Shown here one piece after another: positions 1,256 to 45,918 of a stretch of DNA of 64,000 bases. Each line of letters begins with the position of its first letter. Positions within the stretch are counted from its first letter, which is position 1. The stretch lies in the NCBI GenBank assembly GCA_042577285.1, contig JBHPDM010000001.1, forward strand, positions 16,665-80,664. Direction: 5' to 3'. The notes below the pieces were generated by a model that was not told where the DNA came from, ran no database searches, and saw nothing but the letters and a program-made list of their open reading frames with translations. The translations under genes and the position numbers were made by a program. The stretch is from Candidatus Omnitrophota bacterium. Its GTDB lineage: Bacteria; Omnitrophota; Gorgyraeia; Gygaellales; Profunditerraquicolaceae.

Positions 1256-1284
1256 TTGACCTTAAGTAGTTTTTGGATTAGAAT
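1256..1284 (+). promoter_or_regulatory. sigma70-like promoter TTGACC-17-TAGAAT upstream of the winged-helix gene
   Basis: TTGACC at 1256..1261, a 17-bp spacer, TAGAAT at 1279..1284. An AGGAGG RBS at 1291..1296 sits 5 nt before the ATG at 1302. Confidence 0.5.
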
Positions 1285-1301
1285 TAAAGCAGGAGGTAGA
1301 T

Positions 1302-1508
1302 ATGATAACCGAAATCGGGATAGTCGCAGGCGATATCTGGCACTACCTGGATGAGCATGGAACCGTGCAGTTTTCCCAGCTCGTTAAAGGGATCAATAAG
1401 CCGCGCGATAATCTGCTGATGAGCCTGGGATGGCTGGCCCGCGAGGGCCACGTTTCAGTGGGTCAGGTAGGAGAGGACTATAAGGTCAGCTTGCGCAAGA
1501 ATGCCTAA
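1302..1508 (+). CDS. small winged-helix domain protein
   Basis: 68 aa with a strong RBS. The sequence pattern matches bacterial winged-helix family small proteins. Confidence 0.55.
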   Translation: MITEIGIVAGDIWHYLDEHGTVQFSQLVKGINKPRDNLLMSLGWLAREGHVSVGQVGEDYKVSLRKNA

Positions 1509-1848
1509 GAACCGCCTAGACAATAGGGGAGTAGTTCTTCTGATGGTTCTGGGAACGGTGCTGGTAGTGACGATACTGGCTAACGTGATCATGGGGATAA
1601 TGTTGAGCCAATCCCGCTTTACACACCACAAAGTCAGCCGCATCCAGGCATATTATGCGGCTCTTGCCGGAGCGAACTTCGCGATTGAAAACCTGAGGAC
1701 CGGCAATTGGAATCAGCCGGGGACCTTCCCCCTGAACGATCCCGATATCCCCTTCAGTAACACTACTACTATAGTGGTTACCCCCGCTCCTCCCGGAGTC
1801 AATGCAGATTACCAGATATCAGTCACTACAGATTATACCCTCCAGTAA
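1501..1848 (+). CDS. PilX N-terminal domain protein (type IV pilus minor pilin/assembly)
   Basis: MPKNRLDNRGVVLLMVLGTVLVVTILANVIMGIML matches the PilX_N motif (RG-x-ALL-x-ALM…). Sits at the head of the T4P locus. Contains an N-T-T sequon. Confidence 0.55.
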   Translation: MPKNRLDNRGVVLLMVLGTVLVVTILANVIMGIMLSQSRFTHHKVSRIQAYYAALAGANFAIENLRTGNWNQPGTFPLNDPDIPFSNTTTIVVTPAPPGVNADYQISVTTDYTLQ

Positions 1849-1937
1849 TTTCTACTTCATCTATATAATCAGATAAACTCAGGCCGCATTAGGCCTTTTC
1901 CTTAAGTAAGTATAAGTAAGCTTAGGTAAATATTTAC

Positions 1938-1966
1938 TTGACAAAGTAAGAATTTTATGGTTTAAT
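1938..1966 (+). promoter_or_regulatory. sigma70-like promoter TTGACA-17-TTTAAT in AT-rich intergenic region
   Basis: TTGACA at 1938..1943, a 17-bp spacer, TTTAAT at 1961..1966. A weak hairpin terminator (AGGCC-GCATTA-GGCCT + Ts) lies at 1881..1899 just upstream. Confidence 0.45.
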
Positions 1967-2014
1967 TTAAAAGGATATGAAATATGATAAAATTTAATAA
2001 AGACGGGATTTAAT

Positions 2015-2203
2015 ATGGTTAGATTGATGGATATCGATGAGCTTGCGGATTACCTGCGCCTGCAGAAGCAGACCCTTTATAACTGGCTGCACCAGGGTAA
2101 GATATCAGGGATCAAGTTGGGCGGGGTATGGAGATTTGACCGTAAGGACATCGATAGCTGGCTGAAGAGCAGAAGGCGTTTATCTAAGCGCGGAGATAGC
2201 TGA
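2015..2203 (+). CDS. excisionase-family helix-turn-helix DNA-binding protein
   Basis: 62 aa. …LYNWLHQGKISGIKLGGVWRFDRKDIDSWL is the HTH_17 / excisionase-type HTH pattern. Its stop overlaps the pilM start (ATGA). Confidence 0.65.
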   Translation: MVRLMDIDELADYLRLQKQTLYNWLHQGKISGIKLGGVWRFDRKDIDSWLKSRRRLSKRGDS

Positions 2204-3768
2204 TGAGTTCACTTGGCATATATTTCGGGCCGAAGGTGATCGGCATAACCGAGACTAAGGGCAAGAAGGTGGCGCAGAATGCCAAGATCCCGGTTTCTGT
2301 GCTTTCCCCTGGAGAATTAGAGGAGAAGGTCCCAGACGACGTAAAGATGGTCGCCTTGATCAAGGAGGAATTAAGGAAGCACGTAATCGAGGCAAAGGAT
2401 GCTTCGATATCACTTTCCGGCAAGGATCTGGTGGTGAGGACATTTGAGATGCCGGCTTTACCTCCCAGCGAGCTGGCTAATGCGGTTAACTTCGAAGCCA
2501 GAAAGTATATCCCCTTTAAGACTGAGGACTTGATCACGGATTTCCACTTTAAGACTGACAAGAAGGCACGCAGGCATCTGGTTCTATTTGCCGGGATAAA
2601 GAGGGATGTGTTGCAGAAATATTCTTCGGTCATAAGTCAGCTGGGGATAAAAGTCAATAATCTGGAGTATTCGGGGTTTTCTTTATTGAGGTTTCTGAAA
2701 TCCACAGGGCTCGGGCTTAAGGGGGTCAGCTGTCTGGTATGCATTGACGGCGAAGAGGAAGATGAGGGGATCGTTATGGTCTTGGAGGACGGCTTCCCGT
2801 TGTTTACCCGTGATATTTCCCTTTCCGGGGGAGGCGCTGCATACTCTGGGGCTCAGCCTGCCGCAGTAAAGGATGGAGCAGCGGACACTGAAAAGCTGAA
2901 ATCTGAGATCAGGATTTCACTGGATTATTTTCACCGGAAATTTACGGCAAAGAAGATCGCTAAGGTCTATTTTGTCTCTCCCGGGGAGCGCAGAGCCGAC
3001 CTGGAGAGTTTTGCCGCTGAGGCAGGATTAAGCGCGCAGTTTATAGATGTTGCTAAGTATACAGGTAAGGAAGCGCCCTTTTCTTTAAGTTTTGTCAAGA
3101 GCTACGGAGCGGCTGTGTTTAATAAGGTAAATACCGGCCTAAGGGTGAAATTTACAATCACCAGGATAAAAGAGAGGCCCCCTCAAAATAAGGGACTTAA
3201 CCTTGAGCTTAAGGAAATAGCATCCTTGTTATCCGGTGTAAGGATCAATGTAAAGAGCGTGATCCTTGGGCTGTTGATCTGCCTGGCAGTTTTCGGGATC
3301 GGTATCTACAGGATGCTCCCGCTGCGTAAGGAATTAGAGGCGATCAAGGCGAGAGAGACGCAGGCTGCAGGAGTTAACGCACAAAGCAGCAACCAGGTGT
3401 TGACGGGTGTGGCTGATACCTATAGGAAGAAAGTAAGCACAATGGATAAGCTGGTCAAGGAGCAGCTTTATCTGACTGAGGTGCTTGATGCGATTCCCCG
3501 CCTTGTCCGGGAGGGGATGTGGCTGGTTGATTTCTCCTTCGAGAAGCAGGGTGAAGGCGCTGTGCTTATCTTGGGAGGAGTAGTTGACCTTAGCGACAGT
3601 AATCGGGAGTTTGATTCCGTGAATGAGTTCTTGTCTAAACTTAAGCAATCCCCTGTTTTTATAAAGTATTTTGCTGAGATCAAGATCATTTCTTCAGAGG
3701 TCAGTCAGATCGAGCAGGAGGCGATTACCCGCTTTGTGATCTCCTGCCGCAGCAAAAAAGGAAGCTAG
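2203..3768 (+). CDS. pilMN: type IV pilus assembly protein PilM fused to PilN
   Basis: 521 aa. The N-terminal ~330 aa are an actin-like ATPase PilM (GIYFGPKVIGITE…). A single TM follows (VILGLLICLAVFGIGIY) and then a PilN-like periplasmic coiled-coil region. Gene order is pilM(N)-O-P-Q. Confidence 0.75.
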   Translation: MSSLGIYFGPKVIGITETKGKKVAQNAKIPVSVLSPGELEEKVPDDVKMVALIKEELRKHVIEAKDASISLSGKDLVVRTFEMPALPPSELANAVNFEARKYIPFKTEDLITDFHFKTDKKARRHLVLFAGIKRDVLQKYSSVISQLGIKVNNLEYSGFSLLRFLKSTGLGLKGVSCLVCIDGEEEDEGIVMVLEDGFPLFTRDISLSGGGAAYSGAQPAAVKDGAADTEKLKSEIRISLDYFHRKFTAKKIAKVYFVSPGERRADLESFAAEAGLSAQFIDVAKYTGKEAPFSLSFVKSYGAAVFNKVNTGLRVKFTITRIKERPPQNKGLNLELKEIASLLSGVRINVKSVILGLLICLAVFGIGIYRMLPLRKELEAIKARETQAAGVNAQSSNQVLTGVADTYRKKVSTMDKLVKEQLYLTEVLDAIPRLVREGMWLVDFSFEKQGEGAVLILGGVVDLSDSNREFDSVNEFLSKLKQSPVFIKYFAEIKIISSEVSQIEQEAITRFVISCRSKKGS

Positions 3769-3769
3769 G

Positions 3770-4285
3770 ATGGATATAATAGGGTTGATAAATAATCATA
3801 AAAATAAACTCTTGAGCCTTACGGTAGTGGTAGTGGCGCTTGCGGCAGCAGCCTATATCTATAAATTTCAAGGGGGGAGCTTGGAATCCCTGCGCGCACA
3901 AAAGAATGCGCAGATCAGGAAGAATCAGATCCTCAGTGAAATCGAGAAGCTGCAAGCGTCATTGGCGGTGTATCAAGATGCGCTCAAAAAGAAGGATATC
4001 TCGGTATTCATGAATAACATTAATAATATCGTAAAGGAATCAAATGTTAGTATCGCCTCGATCAAACCGCTTAAGGAGAAGGACCGGGGGGTCTACGTGG
4101 AGTTTTTCTTTGCTCTTAGCGTGACGGCACGGGATTATCATCAGCTGGCGAAGTTTATCAGTGAGATCGAGAATTATTCGGATATTTTTATCGTTGACAG
4201 TATGAAGATAAGTCAGAAAGGAATAGTTCGCGGCGAAGGGACTAAGGCAGATTTAGTGATCAGTACGTTATTCTTTAAGGGGTAG
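3770..4285 (+). CDS. pilO: type IV pilus assembly protein PilO
   Basis: 171 aa with an N-terminal TM and a coiled-coil. Its position between pilN and pilP and its size fit PilO. Confidence 0.6.
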   Translation: MDIIGLINNHKNKLLSLTVVVVALAAAAYIYKFQGGSLESLRAQKNAQIRKNQILSEIEKLQASLAVYQDALKKKDISVFMNNINNIVKESNVSIASIKPLKEKDRGVYVEFFFALSVTARDYHQLAKFISEIENYSDIFIVDSMKISQKGIVRGEGTKADLVISTLFFKG

Positions 4286-9325: not shown

Positions 9326-9413
9326 TTAAAAAAGGAAAGGAGGGATGCTAATAGACATAAACATAGAAAAGAGCACCCTTTATCATAGAAAAAATATACA
9401 AAAGGAGGTAGAG

Positions 9414-9872
9414 ATGAGAAGAGGTTTTACGTTGTTAGAGTTGATCATAGTGATTATTATAATCGGTGTATTGGCAATTTTAGGTATTACGCAGTATGGA
9501 ACCCTGGTGGAGCGTGCACGTGGCGCTGAAGCAAGAGGAATCCTGGGTGACTTACGTAAGATGACAGCAGGCGTAGTATTAGAGCGAGGCGCTACAGTGG
9601 GTGTTGCAGCGATTATAGCAGATCCGACCTTAATCGGAATCGGGGGAGGTGTCGGAACAGGGGAAGTCCCTGCTGCATGTGCGTTGTCACATTACTTTAA
9701 TTATGGTGTTGCAGCCGGGGCCGTTGCTACAGAGCTTACCGTACGGGCTACGAGGTGCGGTGCTGGAGGTAAGAATCCGGATGCTGGTCCTGCCCATGCT
9801 GGTACTACATTGGATCTTTCTACTGATTGGGCGACAGGCGTAGACGCTTGGGGAGGGACTGGTATTTACTAA
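9414..9872 (+). CDS. pilA: type IV pilin (prepilin-type N-terminal cleavage/methylation domain), candidate major pilin
   Basis: ATG at 9414 after AAAGGAGG. MRRGFTLLELIIVIIIIGVLAI is a class III signal peptide (G|FTLLE). The C-terminus is rich in Gly/Ala/Thr. Confidence 0.85.
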   Translation: MRRGFTLLELIIVIIIIGVLAILGITQYGTLVERARGAEARGILGDLRKMTAGVVLERGATVGVAAIIADPTLIGIGGGVGTGEVPAACALSHYFNYGVAAGAVATELTVRATRCGAGGKNPDAGPAHAGTTLDLSTDWATGVDAWGGTGIY

Positions 9873-9884
9873 TTATAATCATTT

Positions 9885-10286
9885 ATGCATAAAAGCTTTA
9901 CACTTATAGAACTTGTGATAGTGGTTATAATTATTGGAGTATTGGCTACTCTCGGGCTTACGCAGTTCGGCGGGGCCCGGGAGAATGCCTTAGATAAGGA
10001 AGCAATTGCAACTCTGCGCCTATTGCAAGCAGCGCAAAGGGTCTTTGGTATGGAGAGCGGGGGACAGTATTATGATTCCGGTGGATATAATATACAAGCA
10101 ATCAATCAAAACTTACGACTTTCTATACCTGCAGGAGTTAACCGAAGCTGGGATTACGCAGTACAAAGTGTCCCAGCCCCAGTTGCGGACGGTTGCGCTG
10201 AAGCAGTAAGGCTCCTTCCTCCTCCGAATAATAGAACATGGAGAATAAGGATAACTGAGGACGATCCTCAACCAGGTACCTGTTAA
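9885..10286 (+). CDS. type IV pilin-like protein (prepilin N-terminal domain)
   Basis: MHKSFTLIELVIVVIIIGVLA. Contains N-R-S and N-R-T sequons and Cys residues for a C-terminal disulfide. Confidence 0.85.
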   Translation: MHKSFTLIELVIVVIIIGVLATLGLTQFGGARENALDKEAIATLRLLQAAQRVFGMESGGQYYDSGGYNIQAINQNLRLSIPAGVNRSWDYAVQSVPAPVADGCAEAVRLLPPPNNRTWRIRITEDDPQPGTC

Positions 10287-10350
10287 TTTTTAGCTGAAGG
10301 AATTTGAGGCACTCTAGTATCGATGGCAGGGTGCCTCTTATTATAGCCAG

Positions 10351-10722
10351 ATGAATAAGAGAGCGGTAACTCTACTTGAAATCATAATATCGATGCTGAT
10401 CCTGGCTCTTCTTATGGCCGGCCTGGCTAATATATTCATTAGCGGAAAGAGATATTTGTTGCATACGCGCGCCAGGATGACGGGAGGGGAGCTTGGTAAA
10501 TCTTTCCTTGACCCCCTGCAGATGGATGTGCGGGCCGATCTTTGGGATCAGACTTGTCTGGGCAGTAATGGAATGATCAATTGTCCCGACAACACCACGA
10601 TAAACGGCATCGATTATACACGCGACTACAATATTACAGATGTCAATAACACTAATCCGGAGTTTTCCTTAAAAAAGGTCCTAGTGCGTATAAACTGGAC
10701 TGAGGTCGGACCCGGACCATGA
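10351..10722 (+). CDS. minor pilin (prepilin N-terminal domain), sequon-rich
   Basis: MNKRAVTLLEIIISMLILA. Four N-X-S/T sequons lie within ~40 aa (DNTTI, YNITD, NNTN, INWTE). Confidence 0.8.
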   Translation: MNKRAVTLLEIIISMLILALLMAGLANIFISGKRYLLHTRARMTGGELGKSFLDPLQMDVRADLWDQTCLGSNGMINCPDNTTINGIDYTRDYNITDVNNTNPEFSLKKVLVRINWTEVGPGP

Positions 10723-11366
10723 AGAAGCCTTCCAAAAAACGCGGAGTTACTCTCTTTGAGCTATTGGTCGCGATTACGTTGATTTCTTTGGTTATTTTGG
10801 CTTTTAGCAGTATCGATACCTTTAGCCGTTTTCACGTACTCACATCCGAGAGACGGGCAAAGGTGCAGAATGACGCATCTTATATTCTTGAGCATATGGC
10901 ACAATCGATCGGTAGGGCGATCGGAAACGAAAGGATCAACGGAGCAGAATCCGTGGTGTTTATCAGGTTCGAATCAAATATAAATCAGGATAGGCTGACA
11001 GTTTTTTTAGATACTGATGGGGACGGCATTAGAGACGAAAATCTCGATTTTTGGACGGATTACCGGGTCAATTATAACCCTCCCAGTGAAAACGAGTTCA
11101 GACATTGTCCACAATGTAGCAGTCAAAATTGCAATTATCTTCTATGTACTCCCGGGGAAGGCGAGACACTCAGCAATAGAATTACCGGGTTTACCCCGTT
11201 TGTGAGACGCGACCTCAACGACAACACTTTGGTAGACAATTTCATCGATCTTAGTGTTACTGTCTGCTGGGATCCCTCCGAAGCCCAAGCTGCCTGCGGT
11301 ACCCCTGATAACCCGAGCGTAAACATGAACGGCCGCGTCCAGATGCCCTCTGTTTCTACCAACTAA
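10719..11366 (+). CDS. minor pilin (prepilin N-terminal domain, PilW-like)
   Basis: MKKPSKKRGVTLFELLVAITLISLVILAF. Overlaps the preceding gene by 4 nt. Confidence 0.8.
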   Translation: MKKPSKKRGVTLFELLVAITLISLVILAFSSIDTFSRFHVLTSERRAKVQNDASYILEHMAQSIGRAIGNERINGAESVVFIRFESNINQDRLTVFLDTDGDGIRDENLDFWTDYRVNYNPPSENEFRHCPQCSSQNCNYLLCTPGEGETLSNRITGFTPFVRRDLNDNTLVDNFIDLSVTVCWDPSEAQAACGTPDNPSVNMNGRVQMPSVSTN

Positions 11367-11367
11367 T

Positions 11368-13881
11368 ATGATGATAAAGAAGTACGCCGCGCCCCTGATT
11401 GCTTTAGCTCTGGTATTATCCCTGAATATATATTTTCGTGCCTTTCCAGTACATTTTCCCCAACTAAGAGTACAGGCCAGAGATAACGTAGAACGCGATA
11501 TTCTGCGTAGCGCAGTTATCCAAGTAGAAAAGAACTTTCCTGATTATGATCAAAGGGCAAAGGAAAGGCTAATAGACGGCGCAATCAATGACTATAAAAC
11601 CCGCAATAAAACTGCGGTAAAGAGGGAGATTGAGCGCGAACACAACCGGTTAAAGGATCGGTATCAGGATGCCGCAGGCCGGACCTATCTCATGGAGCTG
11701 GATTGCTGGAAGTGGGCCCGCTACGTAGATAATACAGTCAAGCTCGGGCATCCGGGAGATAAGGTGGTAAATGGAAGGCAATGGGATGCTTTAATGTTTG
11801 CTCCAAATGGAAGGTTCTTGGAGTGGAATCATTTTTTGTACTATTTGCCAGCATTTCTATACAAAGGCTTCAGTATTTTTTGGAAGCTTCCTCTTTTTAA
11901 CTTTTTGTTTTACCTTCCAATAATATTCGCAGCGGTTTTCATCAGTCTTCTATTTTTATTTTGCTATAGAAATTGGGGCCAAATTACGGCAATCATTGCA
12001 TGTTTATTTGTGGGACTCGCTCCGGTATTTTTAAATCGGAGTACAGCAGGCTGGTTTGACACCGATATCCCAAATCTACTTTTTCCGCTTCTGATTGTTT
12101 GGACGTATCTGGCGGCGGAAAGCAGATCCGGTTATCTGCGCAGGGGGCTCTGGTTCTGTTTCTCTGCTTTCTGGATGGGGATTTTTAGTTTTACCTGGAT
12201 ATACTGGTGGTTTATTTTTGCCATAATTATTATTTATGAGCTATTCTCTTTGGCTAATCAGGGATTACTTTATATTCAGAATAGAGAGAAGGAGCTTAGC
12301 TTTTTTAAGCAGCATCTTTTCAGCTTAAGCGTATTCATTGCTTTTACTGGTCTTTGGGTAATGCTCTTTTCCGGGAGAGAACCATTTCAGCACCTATTTT
12401 CGCAGTTTTTCGGTGCCCTGACGCTTAATAAGCCATTATTGTCCGGTATCTGGCCTAATGTCTTCTCTACCGTAGGAGAGCTCAAAAGGGCTGACAGTCT
12501 GCGCATTGCCAATGCCGTAGGCGGCGTATATCCATTTTCGCTGGCGCTTATCTGTTTTGCGCTTTGGTTTTACCGTATTGCGCGCAGCAAAGAGAACTCC
12601 GGGTTTAAACATGAAGCAACTTTACTCCTGACATTCTGGTTCCTGAGTATGTTCTTTGCCTGCCAGAAGGGTGTAAGATTTGCGGTATTTCTTCTGATTC
12701 CTTTAGGGGTTTTTCTTGGCTGGACTGCCGATGACCTGTACGTTCGGGTTAAGGCCGCGGGCAAAAAAGTACTCAGGTATTTAGTCATCGCAGTTATAGC
12801 GGCCCTTTGCGTGCTACTGGTAATTAATGGCTACGAGGCAGCACGTCAATCATTCCCGCTAATGGAGGATTCCTGGTATCGAGGTTTGACGGTAATTAAG
12901 AGAGATACGCCAAAGGATGCGGTGATCAATTCCTGGTGGGATTTCGGGGATTGGTTTAAGGTGGTAGCAGGCCGAAGGGTGATTTTTGATGGGCATCAAC
13001 AGAATACTCCGCGCGCTTACTGGATGGCGAAGGTTTTGCTCAGCCGCAACGAAGAGGAAGCGATAGCGATTCTTAGGATGTTAAATAATGGCGGTAACCA
13101 GGCTTACGAGCTGTTGAATCGGCAGCTTGAGGACCCTTTTAAGGCAGTACTTTTACTGGAGGATCTGCTATTATCTAAGCCTGATTTTGCCAGAGAGAAA
13201 TTGCTTAATCTCGTACCGGCTGAGGTTGCGCAGCAGGTTTTAAGTGTCCTCTTTGTCGAACCGGGCAATGCTTATTTTGTTGTGGATCCTACGATGCAAA
13301 GGAAGATACCGGCGATCTCCTATCTGGGGGAGTGGGATTTCCATAAGGTTTTTATCGCCCAGGGGCGTGATAGGCTAACAGAGAAGCAAATCGTCGATCG
13401 CCTGGCAGAGTTCGGTATGGATCAGCAGGAGAGTAGGAAGTTATACTCCGAGTCGTCATTGCTCTCCTCTGGGGCAAGGCTGGAAGATTGGGTTTCTAAC
13501 AGGTTAAGATTTTATTCCAGGCTCACGCTCGGGGATGAACGCGGGGGCCTGGTATATTTTGATAATGGGCTAGTTTACAACTTGAAGGAGCAAACGGTTT
13601 ATATTTATTCGGAGAGACAGCGCAGATACCTGTCGCCTAAGAGACTGTTTATTTTTGACGAAGGAATATTAAAGGAAAAAGCTTTTTCCGATGGCGAACT
13701 GGATTATTCAGTGATGGTGCTTAAGCGGCCAGCCGGGTATGCGGCGGTGCTACTTGATGAAGAACTAGCGAAGAGTCTTTATGTACGGCTATTTTTCTTT
13801 AACGGAGAAGGCCTGAAGCATTTTAAGCTCTTTACGCAGGAGCCCGGCGCTTTTAAGGTATTCAAGATAGATTGGAATTAA
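11368..13881 (+). CDS. STT3/AglB/PglB-family oligosaccharyltransferase (GT-C fold), polytopic membrane protein
   Basis: 837 aa. WWDFG at nt 12934..12948 matches the WWDYG catalytic motif of STT3/AglB/PglB. TVGE at nt 12469..12480 is a TIxE-like EL5 motif. The N-terminal half has ~13 hydrophobic TM segments, and the soluble C-terminal domain is ~330 aa. The start lies 2 nt after the last minor pilin stop. Confidence 0.7.
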   Translation: MMIKKYAAPLIALALVLSLNIYFRAFPVHFPQLRVQARDNVERDILRSAVIQVEKNFPDYDQRAKERLIDGAINDYKTRNKTAVKREIEREHNRLKDRYQDAAGRTYLMELDCWKWARYVDNTVKLGHPGDKVVNGRQWDALMFAPNGRFLEWNHFLYYLPAFLYKGFSIFWKLPLFNFLFYLPIIFAAVFISLLFLFCYRNWGQITAIIACLFVGLAPVFLNRSTAGWFDTDIPNLLFPLLIVWTYLAAESRSGYLRRGLWFCFSAFWMGIFSFTWIYWWFIFAIIIIYELFSLANQGLLYIQNREKELSFFKQHLFSLSVFIAFTGLWVMLFSGREPFQHLFSQFFGALTLNKPLLSGIWPNVFSTVGELKRADSLRIANAVGGVYPFSLALICFALWFYRIARSKENSGFKHEATLLLTFWFLSMFFACQKGVRFAVFLLIPLGVFLGWTADDLYVRVKAAGKKVLRYLVIAVIAALCVLLVINGYEAARQSFPLMEDSWYRGLTVIKRDTPKDAVINSWWDFGDWFKVVAGRRVIFDGHQQNTPRAYWMAKVLLSRNEEEAIAILRMLNNGGNQAYELLNRQLEDPFKAVLLLEDLLLSKPDFAREKLLNLVPAEVAQQVLSVLFVEPGNAYFVVDPTMQRKIPAISYLGEWDFHKVFIAQGRDRLTEKQIVDRLAEFGMDQQESRKLYSESSLLSSGARLEDWVSNRLRFYSRLTLGDERGGLVYFDNGLVYNLKEQTVYIYSERQRRYLSPKRLFIFDEGILKEKAFSDGELDYSVMVLKRPAGYAAVLLDEELAKSLYVRLFFFNGEGLKHFKLFTQEPGAFKVFKIDWN

Positions 13882-13962
13882 AGGATAGGGCTGTCCCTCG
13901 CGCCTGGAAGGGATAGGTTGGCGCTCGGGATGCGCCCCGGAGGAAAGTAATAGATACGGGAC

Positions 13963-16224
13963 TTGAAGCAGTGGAGAGGGAGCTCAGTTCTTGAAATCGC
14001 CTTTTCCGCAAAAAGATTAAAAAGCAAAACTAAGGAGGCAGGTCTGATCAAAAGAATAAAGGCCTTACTTCTCCTCTTACTTATCTTTTTACTCTCTTTG
14101 AGCTCTTTATCTTTTGCCTCAGAGGAGACCCACCTGCCCTCTAAGGTCAGGCTCTTTGCCGGGGGAGGGAGCAGCTCAAGGGGCATCTTCTACCTTGACT
14201 ATCTCCTGCCCTTATACTACTCAGAGGACCAGACTACCCTATTATTCTTTAACCCTAAAGTGAATATCTTCTACCCTTCCTCAGATGAGCAGAACTTAGG
14301 AGTTGGCTTTAGAAAAAGCTTCTTAGATAAGTTTATCCTCGGCTTGCACTTCTTCTGGGATAGGAAATCCTCCCCGGCCAATGCCGAACACCGCCAGCTT
14401 GGCTACGGCGCAGAGTTCCTCTCCCAGCACCTAGACCTGCGTTTTAACTACTACAACCCATTAACCAGCGCCCAGTGCGTAGATACCAACTATGAGCTCG
14501 GGGGAACCAGCCTGGTGCAGTTCAACCAGCTGGAGGAATCCCTAGAAGGCTTTGACTTTGAAATCGGTGGCCCGCTCCTTGAGAAATACACCCGGACCAG
14601 ATTTTACGCCGGGGGCTTCTTCTACCAGTCAAAACTGGCTAAAGATGTCAATGGAGCGCGCCTGCGCACTGAGACCAACTTCCTTGACTGGCTTAGCCTG
14701 GATACCACCATAGACCTGCGAAGCTGCGGGGAGGTGGAGTTTACCGCAGGTATCCGCGTGACTATACCCTTGGAATTAGGCAGGATCCTGTATGAAGAAG
14801 ACCCCCATGAAGAAAACCCCTTTAAAACTATCCCCAGAGACTCTCCCACCAAAGAACGCCTCTTTGAGCGTGTGGTGCGTGATATAGATGTCCAGACTAG
14901 CGCTAATCCTATTCCGGTGAAAAGCGATGTCTCGGGTATTGAGATGATCTACGTAGATAACACTGCTGCCGCAGGAGGGGACGGCTCACTCACCACTCCA
15001 TATAATACCTTAGCCGCAGCATTAGCCTCAGCTAGATACATCGGTAACGGCGGCACTGCCAACTATGTCTATGTATTCCGAGGCAACGGCACCTACACCG
15101 GCTATCAGGGTAACTTTACCCTTGATGACAATGTCACCCTCTGGGGCTCTGGATATGACGGCGGCTGCAAAGGTATTCCCGTCCTTGGTTATCCCATCAT
15201 TGACGGCAATAACTCGGGTAATGTCATTACTCTGGCTGACAACAATACCATTATGGGCTGTCAGATTCAAGGTTCAGGGGACGATACTTGGCTTGCCGGT
15301 ATTTATGGAATAAATGTCAGCGCCGCTAATATTAATCACAACAATATCATTGATAATGGCGACACTGGCATCTTTCTAAAGTTTACCGATGCCTTAAGGC
15401 ACTCTGATTTCATTTTCACCGGCAATACTGTCAGTGGGAACGGTGCGGGTGGCATATTTATGTTTAATCAAGCCGCCGGCACTATTTCCGACTTCACTTT
15501 TACCGGAAATACTGTCACTGAAAACACCGGGGTAGGCATATACATGTATAATGATGGCGGCGGCACCATTTCCGACTTTACCTTCACCGGAAATACTCTC
15601 AGCGGTAACACTCTGGTGGGTGCCATATATTTCTTTAATTACAACGCTAGCACTATCTCCGATTTTACTTTCACCGGCAATACCATCATCGCAAACCCTC
15701 TCGTTTCTGGCATAGCATTGGATAATTTTAATGATGGCAACTCTGTTTCCGATTTTACCTTTACCGACAATACCATCAGTGGAAATACTTATGGCATATT
15801 GTTCGACAATTTTAGTTTCGCTGGGGATGCTTCCGCTGTTTCTGATTTTACCTTTACCGGCAACACCATCACCGGGAACGCTAATAACGGCGTATATTTG
15901 GTTAATCTTGAACTTGCCAGCGGAACTTTTTCCGACTTTACCTTTACCGGCAACACCATCACCGGGAACACCCAAAACGGCATCCTGCTTGATAAAGGCC
16001 TTGGCGCTATATCCGGCATTAACTTAGGTAACGGCTCCGCAGGAGGCAATAACTCCCTCTATGATAATGGCGACGGCAGTACCTACTTTGATATAAATAA
16101 TGATTCAGGAATAGATCTTCTTTCCGCCCAGTATAACTGGTGGGGGCAGGCTGAGCCTGACTCTGACCAATTTGGCGGCGATAATACAGTAGATTACACT
16201 CAGCCGCTTGCCTCAGCACCGTAA
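13963..16224 (+). CDS. inverse autotransporter (intimin/invasin-type beta-barrel) adhesin with parallel beta-helix repeat passenger
   Basis: Long signal peptide (…LLLLLLIFLLSLSSLSFA). The IAT beta-domain is recognisable (LGVGFRKSFLDKFILGLHFFWDRKS…HRQLGYGAEFL…LRFNYYNP). The passenger has seven ~28-31-aa SDFTFTGNT(I/V)xGN repeats at nt 15403..16015. The start codon is uncertain: TTG at 13963, or a non-canonical start after the AAGGAGG at ~14033. Confidence 0.7.
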   Translation: MKQWRGSSVLEIAFSAKRLKSKTKEAGLIKRIKALLLLLLIFLLSLSSLSFASEETHLPSKVRLFAGGGSSSRGIFYLDYLLPLYYSEDQTTLLFFNPKVNIFYPSSDEQNLGVGFRKSFLDKFILGLHFFWDRKSSPANAEHRQLGYGAEFLSQHLDLRFNYYNPLTSAQCVDTNYELGGTSLVQFNQLEESLEGFDFEIGGPLLEKYTRTRFYAGGFFYQSKLAKDVNGARLRTETNFLDWLSLDTTIDLRSCGEVEFTAGIRVTIPLELGRILYEEDPHEENPFKTIPRDSPTKERLFERVVRDIDVQTSANPIPVKSDVSGIEMIYVDNTAAAGGDGSLTTPYNTLAAALASARYIGNGGTANYVYVFRGNGTYTGYQGNFTLDDNVTLWGSGYDGGCKGIPVLGYPIIDGNNSGNVITLADNNTIMGCQIQGSGDDTWLAGIYGINVSAANINHNNIIDNGDTGIFLKFTDALRHSDFIFTGNTVSGNGAGGIFMFNQAAGTISDFTFTGNTVTENTGVGIYMYNDGGGTISDFTFTGNTLSGNTLVGAIYFFNYNASTISDFTFTGNTIIANPLVSGIALDNFNDGNSVSDFTFTDNTISGNTYGILFDNFSFAGDASAVSDFTFTGNTITGNANNGVYLVNLELASGTFSDFTFTGNTITGNTQNGILLDKGLGAISGINLGNGSAGGNNSLYDNGDGSTYFDINNDSGIDLLSAQYNWWGQAEPDSDQFGGDNTVDYTQPLASAP
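15403..16015 (+). repeat. in-frame tandem repeats (~84-93 bp, 7 copies) encoding SDFTFTGNT beta-helix rungs
   Basis: Near-identical 27-nt cores tttaccggcaacaccatcaccgggaac occur at 15864 and 15954. The motif recurs at 15403, 15487, 15571, 15658, 15745, 15841 and 15931. Confidence 0.8.
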
Positions 16225-16292
16225 TAATATACCCACTCAAAAATCCCCTTAGATCTCTCCACTTCCTGCGACTGTTATAAGTGAGAAAGGGG

Positions 16293-16321
16293 TTTACAGT
16301 AAAAGGGCCCAAGCGTATAAT
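16293..16321 (+). promoter_or_regulatory. sigma70-like promoter TTTACA-17-TATAAT for the tRNA-Ala transcript
   Basis: TTTACA at 16293..16298, a 17-bp spacer, TATAAT at 16316..16321. Confidence 0.55.
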
Positions 16322-16352
16322 AAGCGATGCTACAAATAGGTTATAGCACTAT

Positions 16353-16503
16353 GGGGCTGTCCATTAATGTAATAGCGTAGGACGCCCCAGCAAGTAATAG
16401 GAGGGGCTGCCCTTTAAATTAATAGCGAAGGGCGCCCAAGCAAGTAAAATTCAGGGGCTGCCCCTTAAATTAATAGCGAAGGGCGCCCCATCAAACGATA
16501 GCA
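16353..16503 (+). repeat. three degenerate ~50-nt direct repeats, each beginning with the tRNA-Ala 5' acceptor sequence GGGGCTG and forming a GC hairpin
   Basis: Copies at 16353..16400, 16401..16453 and 16454..16503. Each is GGGGCTGCCCC-(T)TTAAATTAATAGCGAAG-GGCGCCCC. The 17-nt core TTAAATTAATAGCGAAG also recurs in the tRNA-Met leader. Confidence 0.75.
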
Positions 16504-16579
<76 letters not shown>

Positions 16580-16625
16580 TAACTCTGATTAACCAGCCTC
16601 CACCTATCGATATTTAACCGAGAAG

Positions 16626-17180
16626 ATGGTAAATAAAGACCAAAAGAAGAAACTGCTTAGGATCGCCCGTGATTCGATTAAGACTTATCTAGAGTCCGGA
16701 AAGAAACTGGAGGTCAGTGAATCTGATCCGGAGTTGATGGGGGAGATGGGAGCGTTTGTTACATTGCGCAAGAATGGCCAGCTGCGGGGTTGCATCGGTA
16801 ATTTGATTGGTAAGCAGCCCCTTTATTTGACGATCAGGGATATGGCAGTGGAGGCTGCGACAAGAGATCCCCGCTTCCCACAAGTTGAGCTTTCGGAGCT
16901 TAAGCATATCAAGATCGAAATATCCGCGCTCTCCCCCATGGAGAGGGTAGATTCTACAGAGGGGATCGAGATGGGTAAGCACGGCGTATTGATCAGGCAG
17001 GGCCTTAAAAGCGGGGTGTACCTTCCCCAGGTGGCTACTGAAACCGGATGGACAAAAGAGGAGTTTTTGAGTTGCCTCTGCGCCCAGAAGGCAGGGATTC
17101 CTGAGGATGCCTGGAGGAATAATGCAGCAGAGATTTATATTTTTACTGCCGAGGTTTTCTCGGAGAGCGGAGAGCTTTAG
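16626..17180 (+). CDS. AMMECR1 domain protein (AmmeMemoRadiSam system protein A-like)
   Basis: Carries the conserved LRGCIG motif (GAFVTLRKNGQLRGCIGN). Confidence 0.75.
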   Translation: MVNKDQKKKLLRIARDSIKTYLESGKKLEVSESDPELMGEMGAFVTLRKNGQLRGCIGNLIGKQPLYLTIRDMAVEAATRDPRFPQVELSELKHIKIEISALSPMERVDSTEGIEMGKHGVLIRQGLKSGVYLPQVATETGWTKEEFLSCLCAQKAGIPEDAWRNNAAEIYIFTAEVFSESGEL

Positions 17181-19224: not shown

Positions 19225-20592
19225 ATGAAAAAATTAGCGATGGTCCTACTGATGGTGGTTTCTATTACCGGCTATGTTTATGCGCAGCCTGAGCAGATAA
19301 CGATTACTACTTATTACCCTTCACCATATGGAAGTTATAATGATTTGGAAGTTCACAGGAGACTTACGCTTCTCAGGACAGATTTGAATACGGGCGAATT
19401 AAGACTTTGGACGCCCACCCCGGCTCCGGATGGTAGCGGGTGGCTTTTATATAACAGAGGTCCCGATAGCATACCCGGAGGAGATGGAAATAAACTTTAT
19501 CTTAATTATTTTGATGGAACAGATTTTTTTGGCCCACATTTAGTAATTCAACATTTTTCACCCCAGCCGGATATTAATTTTCCCCGTGTTGGTATCGGCA
19601 AAACCAATCCCACAGGTATTTTTGAGATTTCTCATGATAACTTGACTCCTGATTTTTTTGTAGGTAGTAGGTCATGTCCTAAATGCGTGGATGTCGGTAT
19701 AGGGACAGATGACCCAGAAGGCAGGCTTGGTATAAAAGGAGATAGTGAAAGGGGCGGAGAGGCAAGTGTAAGCTTGGGGGCTGTAGAGGGGAATGGGGGT
19801 GAGTTCGGTTTTGCAGGTTTAAGGTTTGTAACTACCCCCGGCCATAGTGCAAGAATAGAGTTGACAGGGGGGCCGGGTGGTTACGATGGTAATTTGAATA
19901 TACAGCTGCTTAGTGATATCAGGCGTATCACCATGAGTGCAGGCGGGAAGAGTAGATTGACCATGGGATATACGGATATGGTTGGTATTGGTCCTAATCT
20001 GGCTGTCGGTAACTATATCGTTCCACTTAGTCCTGATCCGCAAGCTTACACTTTCCGGGTCTCCGAAAATGGAATAGTAAATGATCTCGTTGTGAACCTT
20101 GATGGTCAGGTCTGTATTAATTGCGATCAAACGTCACAGGCGGATGTAAAGCTGGATGTAGATGGGAACTTAAAAGTAAGACAGATGAGGAGCTACGTAG
20201 GTGTTATAGACCCGCTATATTATGTATTCTCAGATGCGGAAGGATTATTTTACCAAGGCCCTCTGGTGCCAAGCAGTAGTAAAAAATACAAAAAAGATAT
20301 CCGGGATTTAAAAGTTGATCCGGCAAAAGTATTCCAGCTAAGGCCGGTAGAGTTCCGCTGGAAGGAATCCGGAAAAGAAGACATAGGATTAATTGCCGAG
20401 GAGGTCGATACGGCAATAAAAGATCTGGTGGTTTACGATAAAGAAGGAAAGCCGAATGGCGTGAAGTATGATAAGGTCCCGCTTTATTTATTAGAGGCGC
20501 TTAAGGAGCAGCAGAATGAGATTGAATATCTGAAGACAGAGACTGAGAGGATACAGGTATCCCTGGAGAAGCTCGAAGCCAGGCTAGATTAG
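19225..20592 (+). CDS. secreted protein with C-terminal peptidase-S74 intramolecular chaperone (tail-fiber-type auto-cleaving) domain
   Basis: ATG at 19225 after AAAGGAGG, with a signal peptide (MKKLAMVLLMVVSITGYVYA). The C-terminus SSSKKYKKDIRDL…FRWKESGKEDIGLIAEEV…VVYDKEGKPNGVKYDKVPLYLLEALKEQQNEIEYLK matches the S74 / endosialidase chaperone domain. Confidence 0.6.
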   Translation: MKKLAMVLLMVVSITGYVYAQPEQITITTYYPSPYGSYNDLEVHRRLTLLRTDLNTGELRLWTPTPAPDGSGWLLYNRGPDSIPGGDGNKLYLNYFDGTDFFGPHLVIQHFSPQPDINFPRVGIGKTNPTGIFEISHDNLTPDFFVGSRSCPKCVDVGIGTDDPEGRLGIKGDSERGGEASVSLGAVEGNGGEFGFAGLRFVTTPGHSARIELTGGPGGYDGNLNIQLLSDIRRITMSAGGKSRLTMGYTDMVGIGPNLAVGNYIVPLSPDPQAYTFRVSENGIVNDLVVNLDGQVCINCDQTSQADVKLDVDGNLKVRQMRSYVGVIDPLYYVFSDAEGLFYQGPLVPSSSKKYKKDIRDLKVDPAKVFQLRPVEFRWKESGKEDIGLIAEEVDTAIKDLVVYDKEGKPNGVKYDKVPLYLLEALKEQQNEIEYLKTETERIQVSLEKLEARLD

Positions 20593-40100: not shown

Positions 40101-42665
40101 ATGATTAATAAAGTGAAAAAGACATCAATTATTTTACTACTACTGGTGATGGTGCCTGTAGCGGCTGCTCCGGTTTTTGCCGCATCGGAGCTCCTGAGTG
40201 CCGATACTACTGATTACCTTAGACTTGCCGAAAGAGATCAGGCCATAGATGCCGCATTTAAAAGGCTAAACGCAGAGCGTCATCTAACAGGGACCTTAAA
40301 TGAAGAAGAGTCCGGGGATAGGCCCGGGATTAACGTCTCCGGTGAAACCCAGTTAAGCGCCGGCATTACTTCAAGTGATGCTGTCTGGCAGAGCGCTAAT
40401 TATGATCTGAACGAAAGAAACTGGCGAGTGCTCTCAGGGGATGCGCTGAACAAACATTTTAGTACTTATGACCCGAGGATCTTTGATAGGTTAAGCGTCG
40501 ATCTTGATACGGAGAATGAGGAGGGTTTTAACTTCCACAGTAATATTGTGGTAGACCCCTGGAGTTTTACCGGCAAAGGCCCTAAGGTGACGGTCACCAG
40601 CGATTTCGACGATATAGCCGAGGTGCAGTTAAAGTACTGGTCAAATACCGATTACACGATTAATGAGACTTACTTTACTAAGTTATTGGGAAATTCATTT
40701 TCCGTTCCTGAACTTAAGGTCTCTGACGGCAGTACTAAGGCATTCAGGGCAATCGGCCAGTTTGATCCCCGTGACACCTTTGATTTTTCTGCGATGGAGA
40801 TCCATCACGAATTTCAACCAGTGCGAGAAGTCTGGTTTGAATATGCTAACGATGCATTTAATTTCAGGTTTTTCCCCATGGCCTACCAGGATCAGGCTCT
40901 TATTTCCGATGATCCCTTAGGGATAACTAATCACCATGAATGGTGGGAGGAGAGCCTCTGGTTGAGTAAGTATACGCCGGGGATCTATAACTCTGGTGTA
41001 GCGGTCCCTGACTTTACCCAGGGGCGCTGGGATGACTCATTGGCTTTTTTGACCAGGGATTCTAGCGGGGTGTACCTGACTGCCCTAAGAGGGATGTCCT
41101 TCTCATGGCAGCCGCAGGAGGGCACAAGTTTCAGTACTACGATCGCTTCTCCCAAGGACCTTTGGCAGGATTATGAAGAGGTGGATAATCTCAGCCTGGC
41201 CAGCAGGCTAAAGCATTCAGTCGGCGATAATCTTGACCTGGGAGCTACCCTGACATCCCGCTTTGGCTTTGACCCTGACGGTTCAGAGACTGACAGTAAG
41301 AACTACGTGGCAGGATTTGACCTCGGGTATGAGCTCTTTGACGGGTTGAAGGCAGAGGCGGAGATTTTGACCTCAAAGTCATACTATGATTTAAATAACC
41401 TGCAGTACAGGACTAAATCAAGGGGGCATGCCTTTTATTTCTCTCTGGTTTCGCGTTATCCGCGCAAGAGCATCATCGACCTGGAGTTTGGTTATAACGA
41501 TATAAAGTTGGAAAAGAGCGAGGACTTTCTGGTAAAAAGCAGGTTTTATGGCGCGCATATGGATCAGGGCTTTGAGAGCGCCTTATCCAGTTTCCGCGAA
41601 ACACGCAATGACGAACACTGGTCAAGGCATATACATTTTAGAAATCCCGGGGAATATTATTACGGCGGTATGCGCGAGCCGAACGTTAACTGGGACGATG
41701 TCAGCTCAACCCGTATCGGCGACGGGATAGATACCGGGCGCGATGTCCTGGGATTCAGGCTGGAGATGGAGGAAAGTGATAAATTCAGCAACCTTTTTGA
41801 TCTGCGCAATGTCCATGATGTCGACGGAGATTATATCGAGACGGTAGCCCGCGATGAGATCACTTATAAGGTAAACGATAAGTTGACCATCAAGGGATTG
41901 GGGATCTACCATGATCTGCCCAAGACCGATACGGGAGTGGATCCATTTATCTTTGATCCGGATACGGGTGAGTTTGCCGAGGATCTTTCAACAAATCCGA
42001 TTGACGGCGATCAGGACCCTACCTTAAAGAGCGGATCAGTCGGTTTAGAATATGGTTTCTTTGACTGGATAAAGGCATACGGGATCTATGAGCGGACTAA
42101 TGATTATACGCTTGGATACGGCAATTTTCCGCGCAGCGCCTTTAACGGCCAGCAGCGCTCACGGCTTTTTTACGAGAGGGATAACGCCTACAGGGCAGAT
42201 CGTTTTTATCTTTATGATCAACAGCTCTTTCCCCAGCCTCCCTATAAGTTTTACAATATTTTTAAATTAGGAGTGACCCTAAGCCCGATGGATAATCTGC
42301 AGATCTTCCTTGATTACACCCGCAATGAATACGAGATCGCGGGGCAAAATTCTGACAATATCAACCACATAGGTTTTGAGCTAAACTATATTCCTACGGA
42401 AAGAATCGGGTTTATGGTGAAATACACATATTCCCGCTGGAAGGATATCACTCGATTGGAGGGTGGGGTGACCGATCCTGCGGGCTACCATAATTTCTTC
42501 GCTGAGATAAGTTACTTTGCTTCCAAGGACGACGAATTCATTCTGCAGTACGGTGAAGGCAATACCAGCCCGGTAGGCAATATGACATTTGATCCCTACG
42601 GCGGAGGCCTGCTTACACTGGATACCCAGCATATCATCAGGGCATACTACCGCAAGAAGTTCTAG
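40101..42665 (+). CDS. large outer-membrane beta-barrel protein (porin-like), unknown family
   Basis: Signal peptide present (…VAAAPVFAAS). 854 aa with alternating amphipathic strands. The C-terminus …YYRKKF carries the terminal Phe of the OMP signature. Confidence 0.6.
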   Translation: MINKVKKTSIILLLLVMVPVAAAPVFAASELLSADTTDYLRLAERDQAIDAAFKRLNAERHLTGTLNEEESGDRPGINVSGETQLSAGITSSDAVWQSANYDLNERNWRVLSGDALNKHFSTYDPRIFDRLSVDLDTENEEGFNFHSNIVVDPWSFTGKGPKVTVTSDFDDIAEVQLKYWSNTDYTINETYFTKLLGNSFSVPELKVSDGSTKAFRAIGQFDPRDTFDFSAMEIHHEFQPVREVWFEYANDAFNFRFFPMAYQDQALISDDPLGITNHHEWWEESLWLSKYTPGIYNSGVAVPDFTQGRWDDSLAFLTRDSSGVYLTALRGMSFSWQPQEGTSFSTTIASPKDLWQDYEEVDNLSLASRLKHSVGDNLDLGATLTSRFGFDPDGSETDSKNYVAGFDLGYELFDGLKAEAEILTSKSYYDLNNLQYRTKSRGHAFYFSLVSRYPRKSIIDLEFGYNDIKLEKSEDFLVKSRFYGAHMDQGFESALSSFRETRNDEHWSRHIHFRNPGEYYYGGMREPNVNWDDVSSTRIGDGIDTGRDVLGFRLEMEESDKFSNLFDLRNVHDVDGDYIETVARDEITYKVNDKLTIKGLGIYHDLPKTDTGVDPFIFDPDTGEFAEDLSTNPIDGDQDPTLKSGSVGLEYGFFDWIKAYGIYERTNDYTLGYGNFPRSAFNGQQRSRLFYERDNAYRADRFYLYDQQLFPQPPYKFYNIFKLGVTLSPMDNLQIFLDYTRNEYEIAGQNSDNINHIGFELNYIPTERIGFMVKYTYSRWKDITRLEGGVTDPAGYHNFFAEISYFASKDDEFILQYGEGNTSPVGNMTFDPYGGGLLTLDTQHIIRAYYRKKF

Positions 42666-42681
42666 CTCATCCTAATTTAAC

Positions 42682-45600: not shown

Positions 45601-45918
45601 ATGAAATGGTTCATAGAAGAGTTGTTTTGAGCCCTTAGAGGTTCTAATAAAGGTCCGGAATCCCAGAAGATGGGTAAACCTCCAGGCTTTATTTGCCGGA
45701 AAGAATTCAAGGATCGAATGTTCCTTATCCTTGCTGCCGAATGCAGAAACCCCTTGCCCCCTGTTGACGTAAAAGACCCAGATCGGGATACCGTATCTAC
45801 CTGCTATACCGGGGAAGAAGCTGGCAAAGGGTTTAGAGGAGTTAAAATTGCTGATCGAGAACTCCCCGTTTTCCTCTATGCTATATTTTACGGATCCTCT
45901 GATATGGCCTTTACTCAT
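42682..45918 (-). CDS. GH94-family glycoside phosphorylase-like protein (cellobiose/chitobiose phosphorylase or cyclic beta-glucan synthase-related)
   Basis: 1078 aa. From memory, three stretches resemble GH94 cellobiose phosphorylase: VTLAPGESKDIHSLIG, GKPNWYDALNGL and WLENESIWMHMEYKYLL (catalytic (alpha/alpha)6 barrel). Assignment to a specific substrate is not possible. Confidence 0.5.
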   Translation of the reverse strand: MSKGHIRGSVKYSIEENGEFSISNFNSSKPFASFFPGIAGRYGIPIWVFYVNRGQGVSAFGSKDKEHSILEFFPANKAWRFTHLLGFRTFIRTSKGSKQLFYEPFHNGFSNAGFHLSNNISITPYDLKLKETNRTLGLEVEVEYFTIPNDSYGALARTLSVRNSSKKKISLQLIDGLPRIVPYGTANLFLKKLGRTIEAWMGVKNLENGVPFYKIDVDPVDRAQVIHIKGGNFYLPFHYNGKRPKVLKAVVDPKYIFGPSNDLSCPHEFISCRNFTLPKTQITRSQMPCGFAFLKVTLAPGESKDIHSLIGSMHSPAALNSSLNRITGRGYLDKKRRENRDLILKLQSDIDTGSSSSRFNHYAKQTYLDNIMRGGYPVILGNEKRKNVFYMYSRKHGDLERDYNKFHIQSSYFSQGDGNYRDLNQNRRCDVWFNPEVGDENLITLCNLLQSDGYNPLVVKVARFSARSRSSLKKKLGRLAPARSIKKILSFLDGPFTPGELAFFLKNHRVRLNVPIDEFLQTLLADCAKHQEAEHREGFWTDHWTYNLDLLENYLSIYPEKKSEIIFNKKVFTFFDSAQTVNPRKHKYQVLEGKLRQLSSVSLHQAKSTIIGKRTTFANTSRTRHGKGKIYKTTLINKLLCLIGNKLATLDPFGVGIEMEAGKPNWYDALNGLPALFGSSLNETFELKRLIIFVRESLRSCGIKRLKITLEACQLLDALYRLIGENLESNRPERDFRYWDRSASVKEAYRAKTILGFSGKEKRVTSARIDSILELALKKLEAGIKKAKDRKTGVYCAYFINEITRSAPLKSPYINAKAFRQKRLPLFLEGQVHALRLAENKKSALALHRATRKSALFDRNLKMYKVTTSLKGMPQEIGRCRAFTPGWLENESIWMHMEYKYLLELLRGGLNEEFYKDFKNLLPPFQDPKIYGRSTLENTSFIVSSAHTDRSLWGNGFTARLSGSTAEFINIWLLMNVGARPFWIDSKARLSLRFKPILARWLFAKDNTYSFNFLSKIRIVYHNPKRKDTFGRDAVKVKRIAFRDNSGRQVEISSDTLPSPYAQQFRARQIKHADIFLG

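Follow-up and report, generated by a model that had tools for sequence, protein, structure and literature searches.

In the window analysed here, a 64,000-nt stretch of contig JBHPDM010000001.1 from a Candidatus Omnitrophota bacterium, an open reading frame (ORF) at 13963..16224 on the + strand, 753 amino acids (aa) long when read from a TTG codon, combines an N-terminal inverse-autotransporter barrel with a C-terminal β-helix. Its parts follow one another in the order signal peptide, barrel (aa 54-272), linker (aa 273-316) and passenger (aa 317-753), which is the inverse-autotransporter arrangement. We favor, with a probability of roughly 0.7, the interpretation that the product is a type Ve inverse autotransporter presenting a β-helix as a surface binding scaffold, and that its gene occupies a slot beside type IV pilus and oligosaccharyltransferase (OST) genes by lineage chance. 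The first-pass annotation of this DNA had described the same ORF from the same TTG, and its proposal of an inverse autotransporter with a parallel β-helix passenger agrees with the Pfam matches, with a PDB profile match to 4e1t and with AlphaFold2/Foldseek matches to 4e1t, 4e1s and 5g26. The NCBI protein identical to the ORF product, on a contig of 86.7 kb, is named "right-handed parallel beta-helix repeat-containing protein" of Candidatus Omnitrophota bacterium.

The outer-membrane β-barrel (14122..14778, +) was delimited by Pfam IAT_beta, a PDB profile, AlphaFold2 (AF2) and Foldseek. IAT_beta (PF11924) matched aa 78-203 with E=1.6e-13 (51.3 bits vs a cut-off of 22.3), and the relatives P0115 and P0163 matched positions 65-277 of the same model; NCBIfam gave weak SinH and YchO/YchP invasin matches. 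A profile of 27 family members searched against all PDB sequences found the invasin β-domain 4e1t with E=4e-7. AF2 models built with family alignments reached a pLDDT of 86.8 for the full length and 87.1 for aa 28-345, with most of the barrel above 90. The best Foldseek match was invasin 4e1t (E=1.9e-11, TM(target) 0.77), with intimin 4e1s at TM(target) 0.76; these two and 5g26 took the top ranks (E=2e-11 to 2e-10, TM(target) 0.74-0.77) and were the only inverse-autotransporter barrel entries returned by the PDB search. Other barrels (OmpG, NanC, OMPLA and type Va translocators) scored TM 0.27-0.58, with a value of 0.48 for OmpG. The sequence identity of the barrel to invasin and intimin is only 15-18%. 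The secondary-structure (DSSP) string of the model has 14 strands between aa 58 and 272, which we read as 12 transmembrane strands plus one probable extracellular hairpin at aa ~171-191. The barrel motifs quoted in the first-pass annotation (NLGVGFRKSFLDKFILGLHFFWDRKS...GYGAEFL...LRFNYYNP) are present in the translation at aa ~111-166. That annotation had staked its proposal on a barrel at residues ~60-300; a barrel is predicted there, and the hidden Markov model searches it recommended placed both IAT_beta and Beta_helix above the Pfam cut-offs.

The linker (14779..14910, +; alignment and AF2) contains the most conserved stretch of the family, RLFERVVRDIDVQ (R-L-F-E-R-V-V-R-D-I-D-V-Q), at aa 296-310 (nt 14848-14892), in which R299, R306 and D307 are invariant. 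The majority fraction falls from 0.74 in the linker core to 0.62 in the barrel, 0.57 in the proximal passenger and 0.41 in the repeats. A short helix was modelled at 295-301 (pLDDT ~94), just after the last barrel strand. By analogy with intimin and invasin, the linker would run through and fill the barrel lumen.

The passenger was modelled as a right-handed parallel β-helix of about 12-13 rungs in all, with pLDDT mostly above 90 and a regular three-strand periodicity. Its barrel-proximal portion (aa 317-470; 14911..15372, +; alignment and AF2), made up of an N-cap (IYVDN..G.GDGSL..PYNTL) and the first rungs, is the best-conserved portion of the passenger. Then come seven tandem rungs of 28-31 aa, each with a SDFTFTGNT motif (15373..16032, +; protein and DNA repeats, AF2), and a C-terminal cap carrying a conserved NWWG...VDY..PL motif (16033..16221, +; alignment). 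The seven repeats counted earlier were recovered with starts at aa 481, 509, 537, 566, 596, 627 and 657, i.e., with spacings of 28, 28, 29, 30, 31 and 30 aa; the motif is SDFIFTGNT in the first repeat and SDFTFTDNT in the fifth. At the DNA level the seven copies are spaced 84-93 nt apart and are 63-88% identical to the reference copy. The last two copies are 88% identical, from which we conclude that the rung number evolves by duplication. In the comparison of repeat copy number that had been suggested for related genomes, homologues of 553-1282 aa carried 0-7 strict SDFTFTGNT repeats. Pfam Beta_helix (PF13229) matched with E=1.6e-18 (67.3 bits) and NosD with E=3e-13, all above cut-offs, and the PbH1 repeats of TIGR03804 scored 25.2 bits. 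LysM, Big_1/Big_2 immunoglobulin (Ig)-like and lectin domains gave no Pfam match at E<=0.1.

The same architecture recurs in a large family. A full-length search returned 53 proteins, nearly all with IAT_beta plus Beta_helix and mostly from Omnitrophota (including Velamenicoccus archaeovorus and Auribacter), with Aerophobetes in addition. A scan of species-representative genomes gave 58 loci, those outside Omnitrophota being in Planctomycetota, Verrucomicrobiota, Kiritimatiellia, Lentisphaerae, Spirochaetota, Gammaproteobacteria, Cyanobacteria and others. A search with the barrel alone through 1.84 billion cluster representatives yielded 2154 matches at E<=1e-3, of which 703 reached E<=1e-10 and 63 reached E<=1e-30; nearly all of the 150 best relatives have the barrel at their N-terminal end. 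The family thus comprises hundreds of 50%-identity clusters, mostly in Omnitrophota and other PVC-group bacteria. A homologous β-helix follows the barrel in 155 of the 188 collected proteins. Nine of the 14 full-length outliers were scanned; four of them have Beta_helix, DUF1565 or NosD (one below the Pfam cut-off), and no Big domain was found in the nine. Judged from these sequences, a β-helix passenger is the rule in the Omnitrophota/PVC inverse-autotransporter clade. No second copy of the gene was found in the 64-kb window. Several Omnitrophota metagenome-assembled genomes carry two or three paralogous loci with unrelated neighborhoods (L004, at 1264-4014 and 10001-12562; L008, L009 and L011; L010 and L013; L018 and L039), which is typical of a diversifying surface-protein family.

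The passenger is most likely a surface-displayed binding scaffold, either an adhesin or a glycan-binding protein. Within the helix body (aa 348-699), not one Asp, Glu, His, Lys or Arg reaches 80% conservation in the 27-sequence alignment, and the sole conserved charged residues of the passenger are D332 and D340 in the N-cap and D710 in the C-cap. The absence of conserved charged or catalytic residues from the helix body and the variable rung number together favor a binding scaffold over an enzyme. The alternative, that the passenger is a surface carbohydrate-active enzyme or a tailspike-like depolymerase acting on host, prey or own envelope polysaccharide, is unlikely in our estimate. It draws on the nearest neighbors of the helix in structure and sequence, which are GH87 α-1,3-glucanase (profile E=1.6e-11), the alginate epimerases AlgG and AlgE4, and phage tailspikes or exopolysaccharide (EPS) depolymerases. 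An Omnitrophota preprint (10.1101/2023.11.21.568195) also argued that the phylum includes predatory bacteria and that giant proteins may adhere to other cells, and one homologue of our protein comes from Candidatus Velamenicoccus archaeovorus. The TM scores of the passenger to these neighbors are low (0.2-0.48), and therefore the likeness is one of repeat and fold class, not of family; a fold search against viral structures returned generic β-helix matches only. Besides the lack of conserved D/E/H/K/R residues, the seven near-identical central rungs are typical of structural stacks, and there is no glycoside-hydrolase or polysaccharide-lyase Pfam match.

The N-terminus admits two candidate starts, TTG 13963 and CTG 14044, and the mature protein is the same from either. 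TTG 13963 is the sole canonical start upstream of the hydrophobic core (no ATG, GTG or other TTG lies ahead of the core in the reading frame) and is used in the NCBI record; the nearest GGAGG is 19 nt upstream of it. The alternative, non-canonical start region (14032..14049, +) consists of AAGGAGG (14032-14038), 5 nt and the in-frame codons CTG (14044) and ATC (14047). The first-pass annotation had rightly called the start non-obvious and had named both the TTG and the CTG/ATC codons behind AAGGAGG; the motif itself lies at 14032-14038 and not at ~14025 as it had stated. From sequence and aligned homologue N-termini we read a Sec-type signal peptide at 14044..14121 (+), (L/M)IKRIK-ALLLLLLIFLLSLSSLSFA followed by SEE, with a predicted cut after Ala53. 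A start at CTG 14044 would give a textbook signal peptide, (M)IKRIK-ALLLLLLIFLLSLSSLSFA before SEE, like the short N-termini of most homologues, which begin 5-12 residues ahead of the hydrophobic core in the N-terminal alignment. A start at TTG 13963 would add 27 residues to the n-region, and these are unconserved in homologues (occupancy 0.57, identity 0.10). AAGGAGG also precedes the ATG starts 9414, 19225, 28694 and 31098 at 4-6 nt. Of its 24 copies on the + strand of the window many are intragenic, so the support that it lends to CTG 14044 is suggestive only. The earlier likening of the long N-region to the extended signal peptides of intimins was not sustained, given the short N-termini of most homologues and the lack of a Pfam ESPR match at E<=0.1.

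As a type Ve inverse autotransporter, the protein would be exported by Sec and its signal peptide cut near Ala53, after which aa 54-272 would enter the outer membrane and form a 12-stranded barrel like those of intimin and invasin. The barrel lumen would then be occupied by the conserved linker with its ERVVRDIDVQ helix, and the passenger (aa 317-753) would be threaded outward to fold on the cell surface as a right-handed parallel β-helix of about 12-13 rungs. The part of the passenger next to the barrel is the first to emerge in inverse autotransporters, and hence the conserved N-cap and first rungs would nucleate folding. Stacking of the later rungs would drive secretion, as a mirror image of the C-to-N folding of type Va passengers.

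The gene lies downstream of a co-oriented (+) type IV pilus cluster in which PilM/N starts at 2203, PilO at 3770, the secretin at 4738, the PilB-type ATPase at 6330 and PilC at 8045; four N-methyl-motif pilins (9345-11366) and an STT3-type OST of 837 aa (11368-13881; PF02516, E=1e-33) follow. The OST is the last gene of a pilus operon of the order PilMN-PilO-secretin-PilB-PilC-four pilins-STT3. The spacer between STT3 and the autotransporter gene (13882..13962, +) is 81 nt long, GC-rich and free of a U-tract. The first-pass annotation had seen no obvious promoter in this gap after the STT3 stop (13881), and neither a promoter-like nor a terminator-like site was found there. A terminator or structured element is not indicated either, since the spacer is predicted to fold no more stably than shuffled controls do (z = -0.02). 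Cotranscription with the pilus/OST genes, including read-through from the OST gene, is plausible in this genome, given the common strand, the gap of 81 nt and the failure to find a terminator. An Rfam search of 13800-16700 gave a tRNA as the sole match. The GC skew of 14001-16000 is -0.10, compared with +0.03 to +0.21 in the other 2-kb blocks (except -0.003 at 42001-44000), at a normal G+C of 0.477. The negative skew is likely due to the Thr/Asn/Phe/Asp-rich repeat codons; acquisition from elsewhere would be a less favored source.

This layout is also the starting point for a reading in which the pilus/OST operon ends with this gene and the adjacent STT3 N-glycosylates the gene product in the periplasm, while the product is unfolded and before its export. 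We consider that quite unlikely. In its favor are the shared strand, the 81-nt gap without a terminator-like or promoter-like site, and the 11 N-X-S/T sites of the passenger, among which DDNVT at N390 and DGNNS at N416 have an acidic residue at -2. An autotransporter passenger is unfolded on its way across the periplasm, and PglB-type enzymes can act at that stage. To weigh the sequons, the mature protein was shuffled 2000 times and compared with 33 other window proteins. The "many" N-X-S/T sites that the first-pass annotation had pointed to amount to 11, against 10.4 +/- 2.8 from composition (10.4-10.8 expected overall, z about 0.1), and the D/E-X-N-X-S/T sites to 2 against 1.1-1.2 expected. 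Sequons are about as dense, or denser, in homologues encoded far from any OST (1.0-3.3 per 100 aa). Within the cluster, enrichment is seen in the minor pilin at 10351-10722, with 4 sequons vs 1.2 expected (z = 2.8; 34 window proteins compared) and two D-X-N-X-T sites (DYNIT and DVNNT) vs 0.1 expected (z = 5.7). A sequon-rich minor pilin and an STT3 in one pilus operon suggest N-glycosylated bacterial pilins. N-glycosylated pilins occur in archaea; no paper on STT3 within bacterial pilus operons was found in the literature.

The neighborhoods of related genes speak against the same reading. Gene tables of 4 homologue loci were inspected and 63 loci were searched by tblastn with 15 window proteins. 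Even at E<=0.05, the 63 loci (about 1 Mb) gave no STT3 within +/-10 kb of the homologue genes, and pilus machinery (PilB/PilC) lay near the homologue gene in only one (L005). In the other direction, none of 80 metagenomic loci with an STT3 of 38-50% identity contained an inverse-autotransporter homologue. The pilus-pilin-STT3 synteny is kept in about 18 of the 80 (L070, L075, L081, L098-L100, L106, L110, L115, L120, L126, L131 and others), and what follows STT3 varies. In this window the slot from STT3 to tRNA-Ala(CGC) (16504..16579, +), the conserved right-hand border, covers 13882-16503 (2.6 kb) and contains the inverse-autotransporter gene. The slot is empty in L120, where the tRNA comes 13 nt after STT3; it spans 5-9 kb in L070, L099 and L110, with GT2/GT4 glycosyltransferase, epimerase or B12-radical-SAM genes, and likewise 5-9 kb in L080 and L128. 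In L131, GT4, B12-radical-SAM and flippase genes come directly after STT3, with no tRNA within the 10 kb fetched. AMMECR1, RsmE and MiaB-like genes then follow in L110 and L120, as in this window. Glycan-synthesis genes or nothing therefore take the same slot in the syntenic relatives, and the autotransporter gene appears to fill this variable slot in a lineage-specific way and not to be part of a conserved functional module. With 0/63 homologue loci, 0/80 STT3 loci and sequons at chance level, the idea of a conserved tie to the OST, with the protein as its second substrate, was not upheld, and a dedicated coupling between the two is not supported by the sequences. Two further observations concern the STT3 loci themselves: syntenic ones often continue with GT2/GT4, epimerase, B12-radical-SAM and flippase genes, and in L075 the tRNA lies upstream of STT3 instead.

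A version with more consequence, in which this gene joined the pilus/N-glycosylation locus and is transcribed by read-through from the OST gene, so that a type IV pilus, STT3 and an N-glycosylated tailspike-like helix binding host or prey glycans are produced together, strikes us as improbable. If the passenger were N-glycosylated, this would be the first case of a periplasmic STT3-type enzyme modifying an autotransporter passenger. Least credible of all is a NosD-like β-helix that stays periplasmic with the barrel as an outer-membrane anchor or pore: Pfam describes NosD as "periplasmic copper-binding protein" and export of the passenger is argued by analogy, but the NosD match is a generic PbH1-repeat match overlapping Beta_helix, and the domain order and conserved linker fit the inverse-autotransporter design, with a post-strand segment through the pore, as given in passages of PMC6555100 and PMC4943183.

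Several points count against the type Ve interpretation and should be set beside it. The IAT_beta match spans only positions 65-173 of the 279 in the model, the count of 12 strands was taken from the secondary-structure string alone, and the path of the linker through the lumen is read by analogy. To our knowledge, surface exposure has been established by experiment for intimin/invasin-type members only and for none in the Omnitrophota/PVC clade. A lineage-specific enzymatic activity is possible even with no catalytic residue conserved across the 27-sequence alignment. As for the gene's position, relatives of either protein were found at no more than about 50% identity, and an unconserved linkage leaves cotranscription with the OST gene, or glycosylation by the OST, possible in this genome.

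Compared with known systems, the protein is closest in its anchor to invasin of Yersinia and intimin of enterohemorrhagic and enteropathogenic Escherichia coli (EHEC/EPEC; PDB 4e1t/4e1s), with which it shares the N-terminal signal peptide, IAT_beta barrel, helical linker and C-terminal passenger. Unlike them it has no LysM/periplasmic, Ig-like or C-type lectin domain, its passenger is a predicted parallel β-helix, and it belongs to an environmental Omnitrophota bacterium, in contrast to the enteric pathogens that carry invasin and intimin. The label "intimin-type" given by the first-pass annotation therefore holds for the barrel at the superfamily level and not for intimin proper, which we ruled out on the missing Big, lectin and LysM Pfam matches and the modelled β-helix. 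Type Va autotransporters (pertactin, Ag43, AIDA-I and EspP) resemble it in a 12-stranded barrel, a monomeric right-handed β-helix and a variable rung number, and their secretion is likewise presumably driven by vectorial folding. In contrast to theirs, its domain order is inverted, and the Omnitrophota helix would emerge and fold N-to-C and not C-to-N. A classical type Va autotransporter was ruled out as well, since the barrel is N-terminal, there is no Pfam Autotransporter match, and Foldseek TM scores to the EspP, NalP, Hbp and AIDA barrels are 0.27-0.37. PbH1/NosD/DUF1565-type proteins and phage tailspikes are similar in repeat type (PF13229 and TIGR03804), N-cap, NWWG-type C-cap and fold; unlike them the Omnitrophota protein has an outer-membrane barrel anchor, and conserved catalytic residues were not detected.

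In reviews, the passengers of type Ve proteins are given as Ig-like or lectin-like (PMC6555100). Heinz et al. 2016 (PMC4943183) reported that invasin_beta proteins with a pectin-lyase-fold domain at the C-terminus form "a defined group," and took this as an argument that inverse and classical autotransporter barrels are functionally equivalent. That group (invasin_beta plus "pectin lyase," IPR011050) has the same architecture as our protein, a barrel with a C-terminal β-helix; it came from a 2015 UniProt survey, the passages on it give neither experiments nor named taxa, and it may correspond to the Omnitrophota/PVC clade. Our literature search found no experimental work on inverse autotransporters that join a barrel to a β-helix and no paper linking Omnitrophota with intimin; the sole Omnitrophota paper naming an autotransporter does so in another context. 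The protein is a member of a kind already noted in 2016 but experimentally unstudied.

Some other features of the window were recorded. Behind a near-consensus promoter-like site (TTTACA-17-TATAAT, 16293-16321) come three tandem repeats of ~50 nt starting at 16352, 16402 and 16453 (16352-16500), which lie directly upstream of tRNA-Ala. Each can fold into a stem-loop with a stem of about 10-11 bp, at -17 to -18 kcal/mol and z -1.9 to -3.2. These repeats had no copies in any fetched locus and no Rfam match, and they have the short motifs GGGCTGTCC, GCGCCCC and AGTAATAG in common with the 81-nt spacer. For the ORFs called from 9345, 19183 and 30987 the real start is probably further downstream; AAGGAGG with a spacing of 5-6 nt favors ATG 9414 (a pilin, MRRGFTLLE..., with a class III signal peptide), ATG 19225 (MKKLAMVLL...) and ATG 31098. 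The 19225-20592 ORF encodes a secreted-looking protein, with an N-terminal hydrophobic signal and a C-terminal Peptidase_S74 domain, beside chromosomal housekeeping genes, and a homologous C-terminus is found in L120. Peptidase_S74 ("chaperone of endosialidase") is typical of phage tail fibers and spikes. Two large convergent ORFs, 40101-42665 (+, 854 aa) and 42682-45918 (-, 1078 aa), have no Pfam match at E<=0.001, and the latter contains 11 N-X-S/T sites vs 7.5 expected.

For this gene the outcome is mainly a clean annotation, from which an attractive but unsupported link to N-glycosylation has been removed. The wider interest lies in the family, which is a natural mirror image of the classical β-helix autotransporters, with the same kinds of passenger and 12-stranded pore in opposite polarity. 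Vectorial β-helix folding is a leading idea for what drives type V secretion, and a passenger that would have to fold N-to-C offers a ready-made test of it. Most members come from Omnitrophota and other PVC bacteria, whose surface biology is almost unknown.

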